Source: Dehalococcoidia bacterium (GTDB taxonomy: Bacteria; Chloroflexota; Dehalococcoidia; Lucifugimonadales; UBA3495). Taken from it: 64,000 nt of DNA. The position numbers and the translations under genes were made by a program. Shown here piece by piece: positions 22,158-33,056 of the stretch (the first letter of the stretch is position 1; each line of letters begins with the position of its first letter). The stretch is from positions 2,250-66,249 of the forward strand of contig CBDHDY010000042.1 in the NCBI GenBank assembly GCA_965261885.1. Direction: 5' to 3'. The notes under the pieces are model-generated. The model worked only from the letters and a program-made list of their open reading frames with translations, had not been told where the DNA came from and ran no database searches.

Positions 22158-23192
22158 CTATTCGCCGGACATTCTGACTTCTTCGACGGCGTCAGCAATG
22201 CTCTTCAGGCTGTCGACGACGCCGTTGAGGATTTCTGGGTATTCCACTTCTCTTTTCAGAACTACCGGAACCCAGTAGGAATCTTGTAGGTCTAACTTGT
22301 CGGCCAGTTCGGTCGCTATGGGTTGAAAGCTGTACTCCGAATTCACCCAAAGAGGAGTATCGCCGGTCATTTCGAACCGATCAACGTTGACGCCGAACCA
22401 AACGACAGCGCCACGAAGTCTGATATACCGTCCGTATCCGTAGCTTCGCGGGGTTGCTCTTAAACCTTTCCGATCCACCCATCCTTGCCCGATACCTCTT
22501 TCGGTAGCTTCATCAATCAGTTGCTTGAATAGGGAATTTCGAGCTTCGGAATGTTTCCCAAGTTTCTCGCCCTGACCAATAGGTTTTATCTCTCCGGTAT
22601 AGGCAAACTTAGCGAGACTGCGCAATTGGCGAATTTCGGTTTCAAAACCAGTTTCTCCGTCATCCCTGGTCCTAGCAGCCATACCGTCTAGAAGACCTCC
22701 CCAACTCGAGATCATCAAGTGCCGCTGTGTGTCCCCTACACGGACACATTTGCGTTCTGAATCAATGATTGTCAATTCGCCATACTTCCCCTTTATACGG
22801 TCACACAGCTCGGGCCATAGCCACTGAATTCTCTCTTCTGGAGCCAGGAATACTAAGACCGCCGGACCGTCATCAGGTAGACGATCTAGATAATCGTTGG
22901 GCTGCCTAGGAGTGAGTTCTGCCCGGAACTTTGCTTCGACCAACACCCGCTCCCTGTTGTCCTCGTCAATGCCAACCAAGTCAGGACGTGTACCATCTGG
23001 AGCCGATACCTGCGTTTTCACAGTAGTTATTGGCTTTACTTCTCTCACACCGGACCGGACAATATCATTTAGAGCTTCCATAGAAGCATTCGAGCGATTG
23101 AGAATGTGCCACAGTGCTTCTGTAGCAATGTTTTCTGTATTCCCTGGGAAACTAGATACCAAGTAAGATAGCAAAGTATCGCTTTCAGGCAT
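22158..23192 (-). CDS. Hypothetical protein with N-terminal PD-(D/E)xK-like nuclease motif
   Basis: 344 aa, lower GC than the flanks. TRPDLVGIDEDNRERVLVEAKFRAELT fits the D...E-x-K pattern. Its start is 7 nt after the upstream stop, with GAGGAAA as RBS. Confidence 0.6.
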   Translation of the reverse strand: MPESDTLLSYLVSSFPGNTENIATEALWHILNRSNASMEALNDIVRSGVREVKPITTVKTQVSAPDGTRPDLVGIDEDNRERVLVEAKFRAELTPRQPNDYLDRLPDDGPAVLVFLAPEERIQWLWPELCDRIKGKYGELTIIDSERKCVRVGDTQRHLMISSWGGLLDGMAARTRDDGETGFETEIRQLRSLAKFAYTGEIKPIGQGEKLGKHSEARNSLFKQLIDEATERGIGQGWVDRKGLRATPRSYGYGRYIRLRGAVVWFGVNVDRFEMTGDTPLWVNSEYSFQPIATELADKLDLQDSYWVPVVLKREVEYPEILNGVVDSLKSIADAVEEVRMSGE

Positions 23193-23199
23193 GATTTCC

Positions 23200-23595
23200 T
23201 CAGTTTATCCCTTGACTCTGGTAATTTTGATACGGCGGGTTCACCGGATAGTCCTCGCGCCTCCCGGTGTCCCCCGGTTGGATGATGAAATCCCTGCGGT
23301 CCTTATAGAGACGAGCACGGTTGATGACATAATCTCCCTCGTCGTTGTAGGGATCAATGTCGCTAAAATCGGTCATCAGCCAGTACTTGTACTCACCGAT
23401 GAAAAGGTAGGTATTGTTCATCCGGAAGAAGCGGCAGGCGACGCCTTCTCCGGCACGATAACGGCCGCAGATGACGTCCAGCAGTTCCCGCTGATCGTCC
23501 TTTTCAGTCAGAACGTACTCGTGGGGCCAGGTTTCCCGATAAGTCACAGCCACTCGCCATGGGGCGCGGTCAATGAGTTCCTTCAACGTCGGCAT
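23200..23595 (-). CDS. Hypothetical 131-aa protein
   Basis: ORF lies 5 nt after the enoyl-CoA hydratase stop and 7 nt before the next start. It contains YRETWPHEYVL. No family recognised. Confidence 0.55.
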   Translation of the reverse strand: MPTLKELIDRAPWRVAVTYRETWPHEYVLTEKDDQRELLDVICGRYRAGEGVACRFFRMNNTYLFIGEYKYWLMTDFSDIDPYNDEGDYVINRARLYKDRRDFIIQPGDTGRREDYPVNPPYQNYQSQGIN

Positions 23596-26656: not shown

Positions 26657-26732
26657 TGGTGCGCTTGGCGAGATTCGAACTCACGGCCTCTGCCTCCGCA
26701 GGGCAGCGCTCTATCCACTGAGCTACAAGCGC
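26657..26732 (-). tRNA. tRNA-Arg (anticodon GCG)
   Basis: Reverse complement is GCGCTTGTAGCTCAGTGGATAGAGCGCTGCCCTGCGGAGGCAGAGGCCGTGAGTTCGAATCTCGCCAAGCGCACCA. Anticodon stem is CTGCC/GGCAG and the loop is CT-GCG-GA. Confidence 0.88.
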
Positions 26733-26766
26733 ACGATGGGTGCCGTTGGGCCAGCTTCGCTGGAGT

Positions 26767-26852
26767 TGGTGCCGAGGGAGGGATTTGAACCCACACATCC
26801 GTAAGGATACTGCGCCCTGAACGCAGCGCGTCTGCCGTTCCGCCACCTCGGC
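26767..26852 (-). tRNA. tRNA-Leu (anticodon CAG), long variable arm
   Basis: Reverse complement is GCCGAGGTGGCGGAACGGCAGACGCGCTGCGTTCAGGGCGCAGTATCCTTACGGATGTGTGGGTTCAAATCCCTCCCTCGGCACCA. The loop is TT-CAG-GG. There is one U-U mismatch in the T-stem. Confidence 0.85.
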
Positions 26853-26898
26853 CCGGGGAGCCCGGGCCGCCGCCCGGTTCTCGGAGTCCCTTACGACA

Positions 26899-26975
26899 TG
26901 GTGGGCGATGGAGGACTTGAACCTCCGACCTCCTCGGTGTGAACGAGGCGCTCTGACCAACTGAGCTAACCGCCC
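26899..26975 (-). tRNA. tRNA-Val (anticodon CAC)
   Basis: Reverse complement is GGGCGGTTAGCTCAGTTGGTCAGAGCGCCTCGTTCACACCGAGGAGGTCGGAGGTTCAAGTCCTCCATCGCCCACCA. The loop is TT-CAC-AC. Confidence 0.92.
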
Positions 26976-27227
26976 GCGTTCGGGACAAGAATCAATTATA
27001 GGGAAGCCGCCACCACCGGCGCAACCCTGCCGCCAACGAAATCCGCCGCCTCGCCGCAGGAGATCCTGGAGCGGCTCCCCAGCAAGCGCACTGCGGGAGG
27101 TTCGCTGATAAGCGATATTATGTCAAAAAGCCCAAAAATCCGCCTCTGTCGAACATAACGTATCTTGTGCGAACCAACTTGTCATTGCATTTTTGTCCAG
27201 TGACCACGAGTACGTTGCCACATACCC

Positions 27228-28715
27228 TCAGAGGTTGGTCGTTCGATCTTCTGGCGTCTCTGTCGGCCAAGCCGTTGCAGGGAATAGCAGAATTTTGCCA
27301 TCTGGAGTTTCAAGTAAAGCCGATACGGTTCCCGGTTTCTGCGGTCCATATGCCAATCTGTCCAGGGCAGATAAAAGATCCATCGATTGGTCTACCGAAA
27401 AGTTGTCGACCATGGTAGAGCCACTCTCAATCTGCTTGAAGGTCCAATTGGCGAACAAAGTCTTGGCCCTGCGAAGAGGCCAGCAATCGATCCCCATGTC
27501 AGCGACCAGTTTAGCCCAGCACAGCCAGTAGCCCAACTGCAGCACTTTGGTGCTTATCTCAGGGCTCAATGGTCTGCCTCTTGTTATTCCGTTCTTTTGG
27601 TGTAAGAGATAGTTTCGCAAGTCGTCAAAGACGTCGATAAAGTCATGGTGCTTTCTCGTCCTCAGTTCGCTTAGTATCCAATTGTGTTCGGATGGAAGCG
27701 CCAAAGAATCTACGCACCCATTAAGCTCTCTTCTTACAAGTTTCCTACTAGAACCACACATTTTCTCCAGTGCTGACCACACTAAGGGTATAGTCATAAA
27801 CCTGTCACAGGTGAGGTACTCGACCCCCATTAGATATTCGACACTCGCTTCTGATAGAGAGTCAAAGATGTCGATCAACATTTCGGCGAGCTTATCACCT
27901 CTCTGAAGATAGGTACCGTTACCCTCTAATATATTCTGTTCTTGATATTCGTCACAATGGGGCTGCATTACCATATACGATGCGATGCTACCCACGCAGT
28001 CTAATCCCACAACGGGAATCACATCACTACAGTTCATATTGAATACCGATAACGTGGTCTTTATTCTGCGAACGAACTCCTCAATATCTTGGTCACTCGT
28101 ACTTTCATTTGGAACGTCCATAGTCAGAAGATGGGTTACCAAGAATGAAGATCCTGTGTCAGAATCACCTAGGAAGGGAGAGAATTCTAACTGCCAACCA
28201 TCAATGCTTGCAAGGATTGTCTCTGCATTTCTTAGTGCCAAATTGATTACGATGGCTTGGATTCGAGATATCTTTGAGTCAGTATTTCTCAGAATCCTCA
28301 ACCCTTCATCGATGACCTGATATTCTCCACGTACCGATAGTGCTTCGTTTGTGACGCTCATTTCGCAATAATTGTTGAGCTTAATGGGATAAGAATCATA
28401 TTGCAGGCCATCAAATTGTATCGGTACGTAACTTCCTTGAGTTTGCATTACCGCGCAGGATTGAAGTGCGGACTCCCCTTCCAGATTAACTTCCAGCAAC
28501 ACTCTTGGTTTTCTTTGAAGATCAAGTAAACAGGACGCAGGCAAGGAATTTAGCTTAACCATTGATTCGGGAATCGATTTTTGCCAGTCAGGAATCCAAA
28601 TTCTCCTGTTGAATAATCTGATCTTTCCAGTTTGCTGCGAGATTTCGATTTCAGAAATAATCTCTTGCTTATAGTCCGATTCGCCCACTGCTACACCCCG
28701 CCTAGGTCTGTCCAT
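27228..28715 (-). CDS. Hypothetical 495-aa protein, strongly low-GC orphan (possible HEPN-type C-terminal half)
   Basis: Clean 1.49-kb ORF with GC visibly about 20 points below the neighbours. The C-terminal helical region contains HHDFIDVFDDLRNYLLHQ (an RNxxxH, Rx4-6H-like motif). No confident family. Confidence 0.6.
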   Translation of the reverse strand: MDRPRRGVAVGESDYKQEIISEIEISQQTGKIRLFNRRIWIPDWQKSIPESMVKLNSLPASCLLDLQRKPRVLLEVNLEGESALQSCAVMQTQGSYVPIQFDGLQYDSYPIKLNNYCEMSVTNEALSVRGEYQVIDEGLRILRNTDSKISRIQAIVINLALRNAETILASIDGWQLEFSPFLGDSDTGSSFLVTHLLTMDVPNESTSDQDIEEFVRRIKTTLSVFNMNCSDVIPVVGLDCVGSIASYMVMQPHCDEYQEQNILEGNGTYLQRGDKLAEMLIDIFDSLSEASVEYLMGVEYLTCDRFMTIPLVWSALEKMCGSSRKLVRRELNGCVDSLALPSEHNWILSELRTRKHHDFIDVFDDLRNYLLHQKNGITRGRPLSPEISTKVLQLGYWLCWAKLVADMGIDCWPLRRAKTLFANWTFKQIESGSTMVDNFSVDQSMDLLSALDRLAYGPQKPGTVSALLETPDGKILLFPATAWPTETPEDRTTNL

Positions 28716-28805
28716 TTACCGGACCTCAGCTTTGTGGAGAAAGCTGAATAAAACATTCGGGTTGGGAGTCTATCCGACCGCTCCTACGCAACTTCCCGCC
28801 ACCCC

Positions 28806-29996
28806 TCACCGCCTGCCGCCAGCGTACTCCTCGGTCATCAGCAGCGGGCCGTCTATATTGACGAGCTGGTTCTCGATCTCGGACAGCAGGTGGTCCAGGT
28901 TCCAGCCCTTCTCCGCCGACACCAGGACGCCATCGGCGGCGTCCTTTTCCCAGCCTGCTCCCAGGGATAGCTCCCGCACCTGTGCCAGCTCTCCGCCTGC
29001 GGTGGCGGAGTCTGTCAGCAGGTCCATCTTATTTATGACAAGCAGCCGCGGGCGGTCGCCCAAGCCCAGCTCATCCAGCGTCTGCTCCACCACCTCTGTT
29101 TGCTCCGGGGCCTTGGGGTGCGAGACGTCGATCACATGCAGCAGCACATCGGACCGGTCAAGCTCCTCCAGCGTGGCACGGAAGGCGGCGATCACTTTGG
29201 GCGACAGCTTCTGGATGAAACCCACGGTATCACTAAGCAACAGTGGTGCCCCCGACGGCAGACGAATCCGCCGTGTCACCGGGTCGAGCGTGGAGAAGAG
29301 CTGATTCGCGGCCAGGGAGGCGTCGCCGCTGGAGCCCGACTGCACCAGCGCGTTGAACAGCGTGCTCTTACCCGCGTTGGTGTAACCCACCAGTGTGGCC
29401 ATTGGGATGGCCGACTTCTTGCGCCGGTCCATGTGCAGGGAGCGCCGGCGCCTCACCCCGTCCAGTTCTGCCTTGATCTTCTGCACCCGCCGCCGCACCA
29501 ACCGCCGGTCGGTCTCCATCTGGGTCTCACCGGGCCCGCGGGTCCCAATTCCGCCGCCCAACCGCTCAAGGTGCGACCATTGGCCGGCCAACCTCGGCAG
29601 GAGGTACTCGTGCTGGGCCAGCTCCACCTGCAGTTTGCCTTCGTAGGTGGAGGCGTGTCGGCCAAACACGTCCAGTATCAGGGCGGTCCGGTCGATCACC
29701 TTAATCTCGCCCCTTTCCCCGTACATTGGAGCCGAATTGGGAGAGAGGGCCGCCTCAAGATTGCGCTGCTGGGTCGGGGTCAGCTCTTCGTCAAAGACCA
29801 CGACATCTGCCGACAGCTCCCTGACCAGGACGCGGAGTTCGTCCACCTTCCCCTTGCCTATATAGGTGGGCGTCAGCCGCTCCGACCGCTGGAACATGGT
29901 ACCCACCACTTCGGCGCCGGCCGATTCTGTAAGATGACGCAGTTCGCCCAGCGTGTCTTCCAGCGTCCAGAGTTCGTCGCGGCCTTTCAGTTCCAC
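28806..29996 (-). CDS. hflX: GTPase HflX
   Basis: [14 protein letters not shown] (G1), DTVGF (G3), NKMD (G4). The first canonical start is GTG at 29996, but the conserved ERAILVAV motif lies just upstream of it (see findings). Confidence 0.9.
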
Positions 29997-30110: not shown

Positions 30111-31289
30111 CTAACCTCCCTGCGGGGCCGGAATCGCCCAGCCCTCGATTCGCTGGCAACCTTTTTCCACCTGCTCGTCCGGCGTGGTCAGCGACAGCCT
30201 GATGAAGCCCTCGCCGTACCGGCCATAGCTGGAGCCGGGGGTGACCACCACGTCCAGGTCTTCCAGCAGTCGCTGCGCGAACTCGGCAGAACTGAACCCG
30301 GCCGGTACCTTGGCCCAGATGTACAGGCTGGCCCGGGGCACGTTCACCTCCATGCCAGCGGCACGGCAGGCTTGCACCACCCGGTCGCGACGCCACTGGT
30401 AGATTGCAACGTTGTCGTCCACGCAGTCCTGCGGACCGGTCAGGGCCTCCATGGCCATTTCCTGCACCGCCTGCGGAACTCCCGAGTCAAGGTTGGCCTT
30501 GATCTGGAACAGCGCCTTGATCATGTCAGCGTTGCCCACCGCCATGCCGATGCGCCATCCGGTCATGTTGTAGGTCTTGGACAGCGAATGGAACTCGATG
30601 CCGATGTCCTTGGCGCCGTCCAGCTGCATGTAGCTGATGGATCGGTAGCCCTCGTACCCGACCTCGCTGTAGGCGGCATCATGGAGCAGGGCTATATCGT
30701 TCTCGCGGCAGAAGGCCATTGCCGACGCGAGGTCCTCTGCTGTGGCGATGGCGCTCGTCGGGTTGTTGGGGTAGTTCAGCCACATCACCTTCGCGGCCTT
30801 GGCCACGTCGGCGGGGATGGCATCCAGCTCCGGCAGCCACCCGTTCCGCTCGTACAGCGGCATTACGTGGCTCTCCGCTCCGGCGAACATGGTGCCGACG
30901 CCGTAGACCGGATAGGCCGGGTCGGGCACCAGCGCGATATCGCCGGGGTCGAGGAAGCAGAACGCGGCGTGGCCGATGCCTTCCTTGGCTCCGATCAGCG
31001 GCAGCACCTCGGTGTCCGGGTCCAGCTTCACGCCGAAGCGGTTGTCGTACCATTCGGCGATGGCCCGGCGCATCTCCGGCAGGCCGTCTGTCTCCGGGTA
31101 GCGATGGTTGGGCGGGTACTGCGACGCAGTCAGCAGCCGGTCGATGATGGGTTGCGGCGTGGGTATGTCGGGGTCGCCGATGCCGAAGGTCACCACGTCG
31201 GCCCCCGCGGCCCGTTTGGCCGCAATAATGCGGGAGATCTCCACGAAGGGATATGGCGCCAATTTGCCCAATCGGTCAGAAAATTTCAT
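30111..31289 (-). CDS. Class I/II aminotransferase, LL-diaminopimelate aminotransferase-like
   Basis: 392 aa. Has YPFVEISR.., NYPNNPT, and SLSKTYNMTGWRIG (PLP lysine motif). dapF lies 2 kb away on the same strand. Confidence 0.75.
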   Translation of the reverse strand: MKFSDRLGKLAPYPFVEISRIIAAKRAAGADVVTFGIGDPDIPTPQPIIDRLLTASQYPPNHRYPETDGLPEMRRAIAEWYDNRFGVKLDPDTEVLPLIGAKEGIGHAAFCFLDPGDIALVPDPAYPVYGVGTMFAGAESHVMPLYERNGWLPELDAIPADVAKAAKVMWLNYPNNPTSAIATAEDLASAMAFCRENDIALLHDAAYSEVGYEGYRSISYMQLDGAKDIGIEFHSLSKTYNMTGWRIGMAVGNADMIKALFQIKANLDSGVPQAVQEMAMEALTGPQDCVDDNVAIYQWRRDRVVQACRAAGMEVNVPRASLYIWAKVPAGFSSAEFAQRLLEDLDVVVTPGSSYGRYGEGFIRLSLTTPDEQVEKGCQRIEGWAIPAPQGG

Positions 31290-31334
31290 CCTTGCGGCCT
31301 CTGTTCCAAGTTTCTCGAAGAGTGATGCATTTGT

Positions 31335-31544
31335 TCACGCACGGTTAAGATCGCTCCGGGAGATGCCCAGGTCCCGCAGAATCCCAGCTATCGTTCCCGG
31401 CCTTAAGTCTCTAGCTCGCCAGCTGGGAATAACAGTCGACCGGTCGTTCAGCGTGTTGATCCACATTTCATGGGATCCTATTCCTTGGCGATGAAGTTCA
31501 CACCCCAAACGCTTTGGCTTCCCTGTCAGTTCTCGATGGTTCAC
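31335..31544 (-). CDS. hicA: HicA family mRNA-interferase toxin
   Basis: 69 aa. Has ..LHRQGIGSHEMW...VIPSW..DLRPGTIAGILRDLGI. Its start overlaps the hicB stop. Confidence 0.8.
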   Translation of the reverse strand: MNHRELTGKPKRLGCELHRQGIGSHEMWINTLNDRSTVIPSWRARDLRPGTIAGILRDLGISRSDLNRA

Positions 31545-31804
31545 GCCGTGACTATAATCTCACCTTGGATGACCTTTCCGGAAGGCTCGTAAAGCAATAA
31601 CTCTACTTCCTCAGGCAGGGGAGTCTCTCGATCCAGGTAAGAATCAACAAACGTTTCCGCCATACTTCGGATGTAGTCCAACGCTTCTCCCACCGAATCT
31701 CCCCACACACGGCAACCAGGCAGGGCAGACACTTCTGCCATGTATTTGTACTCGGTATCCTCCGAGGGCTCGTAGAGAACGATCGGCAACTTGTACAGCT
31801 TCAT
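31541..31804 (-). CDS. hicB: HicB family antitoxin (UPF0150 fold)
   Basis: MKLYKLPIVLYEPSEDTEYKYMAEVSALPGCRVWGDSVGEALDYI.. from the ATG at 31804 (GAGGG RBS). The track ORF extends spuriously to 31891. Confidence 0.75.
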   Translation of the reverse strand: MKLYKLPIVLYEPSEDTEYKYMAEVSALPGCRVWGDSVGEALDYIRSMAETFVDSYLDRETPLPEEVELLLYEPSGKVIQGEIIVTA

Positions 31805-31817
31805 CGCATCCCCTCGC

Positions 31818-32417
31818 CTACGAAAGCAGCGGGCCAAATACGTCGTCGATGGCGAGCTCAAATCCCGGGACAACCTCAGAACGTAGCACATCTCCCAATC
31901 CGTACGTGGCTACGGTGATCGAAGCGTCCGATGTCAGTTGGAGCACCTCTATGGTTCGACTGTCAAAACTCGCCAGCCAGCACTCCGGCACCCCGATGCT
32001 CCGGTAGTCGGCCAGACGCTCCTCAACATCCCTCGGCGTGTTGCTGGGGGAAAGCACTTCCACCACCAGCAGCGGTGGCCATTCAACGAACGGCAGCCCT
32101 GCCAAGTCCGCAGGGCGAGCGATTCTCGTCAATTCAGGGTTGACCACAAGGATATCGGGCTGACGTACCCTGAGAGGATCTCGGTGTATCAAAACATCGT
32201 AAGGAGAAGTCAGCGCAATGCCCCAACGATTACTCACCAAGAACCGGTCCAGGGCACTAAAAATCACACTAATAACCCATTGGTGTTCGCCGAAAGGACT
32301 CGGGGGCACCACCAGAACTCCATTCACGACCTCACAGCGCTGCTTGGTCTCAGGCAGCGATTGCCACTCCTCAAAGGTCAGCCGCTTGGTCTTCGCCGTG
32401 GTCATCAGACGCTCCAA
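31818..32417 (-). CDS. Uma2 family (DUF820) endonuclease, copy 1
   Basis: LTFEEWQSLPE..CEVVNGVLVV.PSP...H; PDILVV; VVEVLSPSN (PD..E.S nuclease core). The likely start is the ATG at 32405. Confidence 0.82.
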   Translation of the reverse strand: MERLMTTAKTKRLTFEEWQSLPETKQRCEVVNGVLVVPPSPFGEHQWVISVIFSALDRFLVSNRWGIALTSPYDVLIHRDPLRVRQPDILVVNPELTRIARPADLAGLPFVEWPPLLVVEVLSPSNTPRDVEERLADYRSIGVPECWLASFDSRTIEVLQLTSDASITVATYGLGDVLRSEVVPGFELAIDDVFGPLLS

Positions 32418-32468
32418 TCCTCGGTGAATACCTCGGTGGCCGGGCCCTCCATCATCGCATCCCCTCGC

Positions 32469-33056
32469 CTATGCCAGCAGCGGCCCAAATACGTCGTCGA
32501 TGGGGAGTTCAAATCCCGGAACAACCTCAGAACGCAGCACATCTCCCAAACCGTACGTCGCGACGGTGATCGAAGCGTCCGACGTCAGTCGGAGTACCTC
32601 TATTGTGCGCGTCGGAAATCTGGCCAGCCAGCACTCCGGCACTCCGATGCTCCGGTAGTCCGCAAGTCGCTCCTCAACATCCCTAGGCGTGTTGCTGGGC
32701 GACATGACCTCAACAACCAAGTCAGGTGCTTGGTCGATTCGGTTCCTACCAACTAAATCGGAAGGCCTCCTAATTCCTGCACGAGAGGAGCTCAGGAACA
32801 ACACGTCAGGTTGGCGAACCCGCAGTGGTTCTCGGCTTATCAGCACATCGCGTGGAGCCATCAGGACTACTCCCAGTCCCTTTTCCGCTACAAACGAAGA
32901 AACGCGCGACGCTATTTCGAAACCAAGCCACTGGTGTTCATCGGTTGGACTCGGGGGCATCACCAAAACTCCATTCACGACCTCACAGCGCTGCTTGGTC
33001 TCAGGCAGCGCCTGCCACTCCTCGAACGTCAGCCGCTTGGTCCTCGCCGTGGTCAT
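32469..33056 (-). CDS. Uma2 family (DUF820) endonuclease, copy 2
   Basis: MTTARTKRLTFEEWQALPETKQRCEVVNGVLVMPPSP.. from the ATG at 33056, which overlaps the dapF stop (ATGA). The termini are near-identical to copy 1. Confidence 0.82.
   Translation of the reverse strand: MTTARTKRLTFEEWQALPETKQRCEVVNGVLVMPPSPTDEHQWLGFEIASRVSSFVAEKGLGVVLMAPRDVLISREPLRVRQPDVLFLSSSRAGIRRPSDLVGRNRIDQAPDLVVEVMSPSNTPRDVEERLADYRSIGVPECWLARFPTRTIEVLRLTSDASITVATYGLGDVLRSEVVPGFELPIDDVFGPLLA

Follow-up and report, generated by a model that had tools for sequence, protein, structure and literature searches.

A probable defence-hotspot gene between hflX and a tRNA operon of Dehalococcoidia and its putative, highly divergent HEPN domain

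In this study, we asked what a single gene of foreign base composition may be doing between the core gene hflX and a tRNA operon in an uncultured Dehalococcoidia bacterium. The gene lies in a window of 64,000 nucleotides (the whole stretch of DNA that was analysed, from contig CBDHDY010000042.1), where its longest open reading frame (ORF), termed P0001, occupies positions 27228–28715 of the minus strand and spans 495 amino acids. The genome that carries the window is called G000 here, its congeners bear other G numbers and the loci of relatives bear L numbers. Our data give good grounds to regard P0001 as mobile cargo of a defence hotspot, and we hold it somewhat more probable than the contrary that the whole model applies, in which the protein of this defence cassette would be a divergent HEPN RNase resembling ApeA, a HEPN tRNA anticodon nuclease that acts as a single-gene anti-phage system (10.64898/2026.01.26.701840).

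A foreign insert in a variable slot next to hflX

The composition of the ORF sets it apart from its surroundings. In 400-nucleotide sliding windows its guanine-plus-cytosine (GC) content is 0.41–0.48, compared with 0.62–0.66 on both flanks, and at third codon positions (GC3) it is 0.48, compared with 0.81 in the adjacent hflX gene. On its left the slot is bordered by hflX (28806–29996, minus strand), 90 nucleotides upstream of the ORF, and on the same strand, 252 nucleotides downstream of the ORF, lies the operon of tRNA-Val(CAC), tRNA-Leu(CAG) and tRNA-Arg(GCG) at 26657–26975. When filled and empty sites are aligned, the low-GC insert covers positions 27190–28804, with edges that agree to within a few nucleotides: it begins directly after the hflX stop codon and ends just before a 27-nucleotide element, GTTGGTTCGCACAAGATACGTTATGTT, at 27152–27178 on the minus strand. 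In the congeners examined, this element always recurs with little or no change, and on the right every cargo is bounded by it; it may serve as a leader of the tRNA operon, as a regulatory site or as a recombination landmark. The insert contains the ORF alone and no integrase, and scans of it for promoters, terminators and Rfam families gave nothing above chance except the tRNAs. An earlier note on this DNA, made from the letters alone, had described a low-GC ORF of this length at these distances from hflX and the tRNA cluster, lacking an integrase, and all of this proved correct.

The slot between hflX and tRNA-Val/Leu/Arg can be recognized in at least 25 congeners, where it is either empty or filled with a P0001-type orphan, AbiU, a SIR2-TPR protein, PDC-S06 or genes of no known function. 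It is thus a variable defence hotspot in this Dehalococcoidia genus. In G003 it holds a single low-GC gene for a 681-amino-acid AbiU protein (PADLOC E 5e-121) with AIPR and CSD domains, in G355 a single low-GC gene for a 412-amino-acid SIR2-TPR protein (SIR2 models to E 3e-35) and in G354 a single low-GC gene for a 769-amino-acid AAA_13/PDC-S06 ATPase (E 6e-75). G350, G006 and G008 carry on the opposite strand an ORF of 1307 amino acids with native GC and no Pfam domain (L049:148–4071, minus strand, and the same slot in L050 and L051), and G016 carries small ORFs. The insert seen in the window is absent from the empty sites of 11 congeners, G017 and ten others, in which tRNA-Val begins 240–420 nucleotides past hflX. 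The site of G017 is empty although its HflX is 93–94% identical to that of the window and as near to it as that of G001, and the three closest relatives of the window genome show three different slot states. Presence of the P0001 gene is patchy: of 25 genomes of the genus searched in full, only G000 and G001 carry it, and these two were again the only ones among 30 congener stretches downstream of hflX. The earlier note had set its proposal against a resident gene that keeps its place beside hflX with native composition. Synteny was indeed found in every close relative, the close-clade copies each lying directly after hflX in a common gene order, whereas the composition is foreign, about 20 GC points under the flanks, and the gene is present at only 2 of the 30 loci.

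How the cargo reached the slot was another matter on which that note had taken a position, namely that it is horizontally acquired cargo at a tRNA locus. What stands of this is a horizontally moving cargo that lacks an integrase and sits in a slot that elsewhere holds AbiU, SIR2-TPR and PDC-S06. Integration targeted to a tRNA gene is not supported, because the insertion lies about 210 nucleotides upstream of tRNA-Val, ahead of the conserved leader element, and not at a tRNA 3′ end. The flanking direct repeats that the note had proposed to look for were not found around the orphan cargo, where the alignment score equals the shuffle mean, and tRNA-type attachment-site (att) repeats were rejected on the same score. 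We infer by default that cargoes are probably exchanged through homologous recombination in the conserved flanks. A separate observation was made at L046 in G355, where the right end of the SIR2-TPR cargo carries a degenerate second copy of the last ~40 nucleotides of hflX (alignment score 33, shuffle maximum 26). This repeat looks like a scar of the arrival of the SIR2-TPR cassette, and no such repeat of the hflX end is present at the orphan.

Defence hotspots flanked by core genes have been described in Pseudomonas aeruginosa (core defence hotspots, cDHS; PMC10250203) and as defence islands in E. coli (PMC10121019). The slot described here resembles them in its fixed position between core genes, in contents that are rich in defence genes and differ among close relatives, in a GC content under the genome level and in the absence of an integrase of its own. 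It differs from those multi-system islands in that its cargoes are single genes of 1.6–4.4 kb and in that its host is an uncultured genus of Dehalococcoidia. We found no earlier description of the hflX/tRNA-Val slot, though no literature search was aimed at it.

Conservation, spread and loss of the gene family

Since P0001 itself matches no annotation and no known family, the simplest doubt is whether it is a gene at all and not a chance ORF in AT-rich foreign DNA. The probability of the latter is negligible, and the pattern of conservation has already refuted it. About 100 positions are conserved across full-length orthologues at 71–75% identity and a second clade at 35% identity, and the ratio of nonsynonymous to synonymous substitutions (dN/dS) between lineages is 0.15–0.19 at a synonymous divergence (dS) of about 0.8–1.1. 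The gene therefore encodes a protein under purifying selection. An in-frame GTG at 28688, with a Shine-Dalgarno-like GGGGTG just before it, marks the start position common to all homologues, and in two relatives the upstream ATG is directly followed by TAG. For these two reasons the true product is probably one of 486 rather than 495 amino acids, with its coding sequence at 27228–28688 on the minus strand; residue numbers given here refer to the 495-amino-acid ORF.

The family is very small. Among 5.8 billion proteins, a word-indexed search turned up 10 relatives, and an exhaustive phmmer search of 1.84 billion cluster representatives gave 13 matches, mostly fragments, to which a search with the family profile added fragments only. 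Full-length members fall into two clades, a close one at 71–90% identity and a divergent one at 35–38% identity. The relatives come from Dehalococcoidia metagenome-assembled genomes, and in a scan of GTDB genomes the sole match was G001. No member was found in phage records, plasmid records or IMG/VR, in JGI metagenome contigs, or in a sample of 400 other genomes that covers 223 genera of the class Dehalococcoidia.

Several copies show signs of decay. The copy in G001 is interrupted by an IS630-type element (L015:8944–10147) with DDE_3 and HTH_32 domains, a frameshifted transposase and terminal inverted repeats of 21 nucleotides, and the copies at L007 and L065 carry frameshifts that are either real or long-read errors. 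As these split and frameshifted copies show, the gene is dispensable. Where copies can be compared across long distances, their composition has not moved towards that of the host: GC3 remains 0.41–0.48 in copies about one dS unit apart (the window, L001, L007 and L015), compared with 0.80–0.89 in the hflX genes of the hosts. This absence of amelioration points either to selection that favours AT-richness or to a low-GC pool from which the cassette has been delivered repeatedly. When the window is compared with G001, the cassette has a dS of 0.14 and the adjacent hflX one of 0.57. The estimator used is biased at extreme GC3, and we take these values as a hint only that transfer of the cassette between species was more recent than the divergence of the flank.

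The divergent clade is found at two other loci, where it is again low in GC. Its neighbours there include PIN genes, among them PIN-MazE, and also, at L005:9638–10288 and L006:2587–7668, an AHJR-like nuclease, a gene for a 905-amino-acid protein with a faint N6_Mtase match, an AlbA_2/Schlafen-like gene, a DUF4258/DUF2283 pair and a serine recombinase, and together these neighbourhoods look like a defence or mobile island of a high-GC organism. They bear on the possibility that P0001 is an accessory gene with no part in defence, for instance what is left of a phage or mobile element, or a gene with a niche-specific role, that merely rides a recombination hotspot. The hotspot context speaks for function only through the company a gene keeps, and not every occupant of the slot has a known function; the 1307-amino-acid ORF of three congeners and the small ORFs of G016 carry no defence annotation, and the P0001 family itself is without a characterized relative. 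Nevertheless we regard this possibility as improbable. A phage or mobile-element remnant sits poorly with the lack of homologues in the phage, plasmid and IMG/VR collections, both clades occur in defence or toxin–antitoxin neighbourhoods at three unrelated loci, and defence genes typically show what is seen here, purifying selection together with frequent loss or disruption. The HEPN-type signals described below also speak against it.

Evidence for and against a HEPN domain

The C-terminal part of the protein (residues ~270–420; 27456–27908, minus strand) appears to be entirely alpha-helical, and within it lies the sequence DLRNYLLH, which the earlier note had singled out as a possible HEPN RNase motif. 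The motif proper, R367-N368-Y-L-L-H372 (27600–27617, minus strand), is invariant in 8 of 8 full-length members, from both clades. That note had itself cautioned that so short a match arises readily by chance, which is right for the generic pattern Rx4-6H, expected about 1.05 times in a protein of this composition, whereas RNxxxH is expected just 0.015 times; a second Rx4-6H match, at residue 352, is not conserved. In known HEPN domains the arginine is typically followed by N, D or H, and the motif closes helix 3, ahead of the loop to helix 4 (PMC3710099). In both of our AlphaFold models, which are of low confidence, the motif lies in the C-terminal part of a long helix that is followed by a loop and another long helix, and this is the layout of HEPN helices 3 and 4 as described in that study. 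We consider it fairly likely, judging from sub-threshold profile matches, profile–profile alignment, decoy ranking and the helices of the models, that this part of the protein is a very divergent HEPN domain. R367, N368 and H372 would then most likely be its catalytic residues.

The profile matches all concern one family. PF18739 (HEPN_Apea) gave sub-threshold matches in 6 of 12 members, with a best E of 0.0011, and was the sole Pfam family to be matched by more than two of the 12. The register was uniform, residues ~318–393 of the family falling on profile positions ~55–122. Two ApeA sets were aligned with the family by hhalign: seven canonical proteins from the same phylum gave P 7e-4 and an alignment of 76 ApeA sequences gave P 1.7e-3, and the motif helix and the next helix were paired with their ApeA counterparts. 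Restricting the comparison to the C-terminal domains gave P 1.1e-4 at a probability of 56%, whereas a reversed control gave P 0.1. None of 100 ApeA profiles with shuffled columns scored as high as observed (z about 6), and of 100 profiles shuffled in blocks of seven columns, 2 did. With a hidden Markov model (HMM) of the ApeA HEPN domain, built from sequences collected independently of the orphan, P0001 ranked second among the 10,496 ORFs of at least 150 amino acids in its own genome; all nine members tested ranked within the top 13, and their R, N and H fell on the catalytic columns. The similarity to the HEPN domain of ApeA is weak but calibrated.

A number of results weigh against a HEPN assignment. 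The best-scoring member reached 19.8 bits, below the Pfam cut-off of 24.4, and P0001 itself found no match in Pfam (E<=10), PADLOC, NCBIfam, PHROGs or PDB sequences. PADLOC, which the earlier note had suggested running, returned no family for P0001 or any of the 12 members, and none of the comparisons reached a curated threshold. The hhalign probabilities were just 15–56% (P 1e-4 to 2e-3) over 54–62 columns around the motif and lie under the 75–98% HHpred probability at which new HEPN families were assigned (PMC3710099), and in the full-length hhalign the reversed control scored 31.7 compared with 34.4 for the forward alignment. HEPN proteins also have a second conserved acidic residue upstream, typically within an Ex3[KR] motif; no Ex3[KR] conserved in both clades was found upstream of RNxxxH, where E317 and E343 are invariant and E299 and E350 nearly so. 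The four-helix fold that the note had asked an AlphaFold model to show was not confirmed: the two models, for which ApeA sequences were kept out of the folding alignment to avoid a circular result, had a predicted local distance difference test (pLDDT) score of 39 and 51, and their core at residues 306–406, where a helix-loop-helix surrounds the motif at low confidence, scored 54–78. Foldseek searches of the PDB with these low-pLDDT models returned neither HEPN nor any other fold, in a set from which ApeA structures are apparently missing, and an ApeA profile run against PDB chains likewise gave no match. The family profile produced only noise against the PDB (3c19, E 0.25, on the C-terminal tail) and this hit was rejected. 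The note's suggestion of an ApeA-like or Abi-type (abortive-infection-type) HEPN protein therefore holds as far as the in-register HEPN_Apea matches go and falls short at the Pfam and PADLOC thresholds.

These shortfalls give some room to a different explanation, that P0001 serves defence or conflict in the hotspot through a mechanism other than HEPN, with RNxxxH as a structural or binding feature. The hotspot context is equally strong for either explanation, every formal HEPN test is sub-threshold and the fold is unconfirmed, and invariant polar residues are numerous beyond the putative HEPN region, and neither the N-terminal part nor the C-terminal tail of 75 amino acids has an ApeA counterpart. 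In such a protein H195, D208, C229, H253-C254-D255, C303 and C320 could form a metal site or some other catalytic centre. We nevertheless think this explanation unlikely, though the least unlikely of the alternatives that we considered. The only family-level signal obtained points to a HEPN family; it falls in register with the invariant motif, which is of catalytic type, and survives both the shuffle controls and the genome-wide decoy control. Moreover, no profile of another nuclease, an NADase, an ATPase or any other effector was matched, even weakly.

Comparison with ApeA and a possible mode of action

Taking the putative HEPN domain as our working model, we compared the orphan with canonical ApeA, which consists of PF18862 (ApeA_NTD1) and PF18739 (HEPN_Apea). 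ApeA-type architecture is a single gene for ~450–600 amino acids with a C-terminal R-N-x3-H, and this is what the orphan has. Both are encoded by single genes of ~450–500 amino acids in defence hotspots, and both combine a large non-catalytic N-terminal part with a C-terminal helical domain that bears R-N-x3-H. Canonical ApeA proteins of the same phylum are 436–485 amino acids long, compared with ~486 for the orphan, whose motif stands at residues 367–372 of 495, and the motif helix of the orphan together with the following helix can be aligned with ApeA HEPN helices. Over the Mid domain a collinear match of 17 columns to ApeA was obtained, which is marginal: of 80 shuffles each, none by column and 5 by block reached its score. 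Unlike ApeA, the orphan has 50 and not 86 residues between the conserved upstream glutamate and the motif, it carries an added conserved tail of about 75 amino acids (residues 421–495; 27231–27455, minus strand) that is predicted to form beta-strands and has no canonical ApeA counterpart, and it lacks a match to ApeA_NTD1 or PADLOC, its HEPN_Apea score lying under the cut-off. No member of the family gave a Pfam match to PF18862, and hhalign of the N-terminal regions was not significant (P 0.53), which also counts against kinship with ApeA; a resemblance between the N-terminal 'F-x4-W-I-P' of the orphan and 'WW[LI]P' of ApeA was rejected on the same P. As all formal Pfam and PADLOC thresholds were missed, membership of ApeA proper is not established.

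Among HEPN RNases more widely, the pattern used to recognize the group is Rx4-6H with a polar residue after the arginine (PMC3710099), and the orphan shows it. It shares with the HEPN abortive-infection and toxin RNases (HepT, PrrC/RloC, AbiU2, AbiV and RnlA) an Rx4H of this kind, its predicted placement in a helix-loop-helix, a defence or toxin–antitoxin context and fast evolution (PMC3710099). It differs from these RNases in having no adjacent antitoxin or ATPase partner and no conserved Ex3[KR].

For ApeA, cleavage of tRNA anticodon loops, doughnut-shaped oligomers, activation by a dinucleotide and a ligand in a pocket between the HEPN domain and the N-terminal one have been described (10.64898/2026.01.26.701840). 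Drawing on ApeA and on other abortive-infection proteins with HEPN domains as analogues, we infer that the orphan may act as a single-gene anti-phage cassette in the hflX/tRNA-leader hotspot, in which HEPN domains would dimerize to form a composite, metal-independent RNase site. The N-terminal and Mid region (residues 10–262, about 260 amino acids; 27930–28688, minus strand), which is predicted to be beta-rich and which we propose as a sensor or regulatory module, might hold this site inactive until a cue of infection is sensed. The activated enzyme would then cut tRNA or other RNA, so that translation and with it phage growth would stop. The region contains invariant aromatic residues (W40, W44, Y106, Y109, Y116 and W174) as well as invariant H195, D208, C229, H253 and D255. 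In Ec2ApeA and Ec3ApeA a Zn site joins the Mid and HEPN domains (10.64898/2026.01.26.701840), and one may speculate that C229, H253 and C254 of the Mid region together with C303 and C320 of the HEPN region, all of them invariant or nearly so, form a comparable site in the orphan.

If the HEPN assignment is true, the family would be a new and extremely rare branch of HEPN defence nucleases, with some 10 sequences among 5.8 billion, and its sensor region, being unlike that of ApeA, would probably recognize a different infection signal. A bolder proposal, to which we would give slightly less than an even chance, is that P0001 is the founder of a new family of HEPN nucleases that mediate abortive infection as single genes. 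Its layout would be ApeA-like, its sensor and tail would have no detectable relative, and its AT-rich cassette would be exchanged, with neither integrase nor repeats, at an hflX/tRNA-Val hotspot not described before. None of this would be surprising in kind, as single-gene HEPN Abi systems and hotspots flanked by core genes are already well known. If our interpretation holds, the locus would represent a compact defence hotspot with sharp edges and one gene per slot, in an uncultured lineage of soil or the subsurface, the phage biology of which is little known, and AT-rich cassettes in a very GC-rich host would offer a clean case for studying how and why defence genes resist amelioration. The hotspot could also be mined for further candidates, for example the 1307-amino-acid occupant, and a second ApeA-like gene may be present elsewhere in the genome.

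This second gene is the ORF that ranked first with the ApeA HEPN HMM. It lies outside the window, on contig C30 of G000 (66257–67666, minus strand), encodes ~456 amino acids and has 'VKIRNKLVHEG' at its end; its GC content is 0.51, that of its flanks 0.66. HEPN_Apea of Pfam matches it below the cut-off (E 0.0032, 18.4 bits), and we regard it as a second ApeA-like candidate of this genome. By hhalign it has no detectable relationship to the orphan family (P 0.03).

Within the window, two other patches of lowered GC content (0.48–0.58) were seen at 22200–23400 and 31200–33000, in the same housekeeping block as the orphan. At the position of the second of these, the loci of relatives carry Uma2 and HicA/HicB genes.

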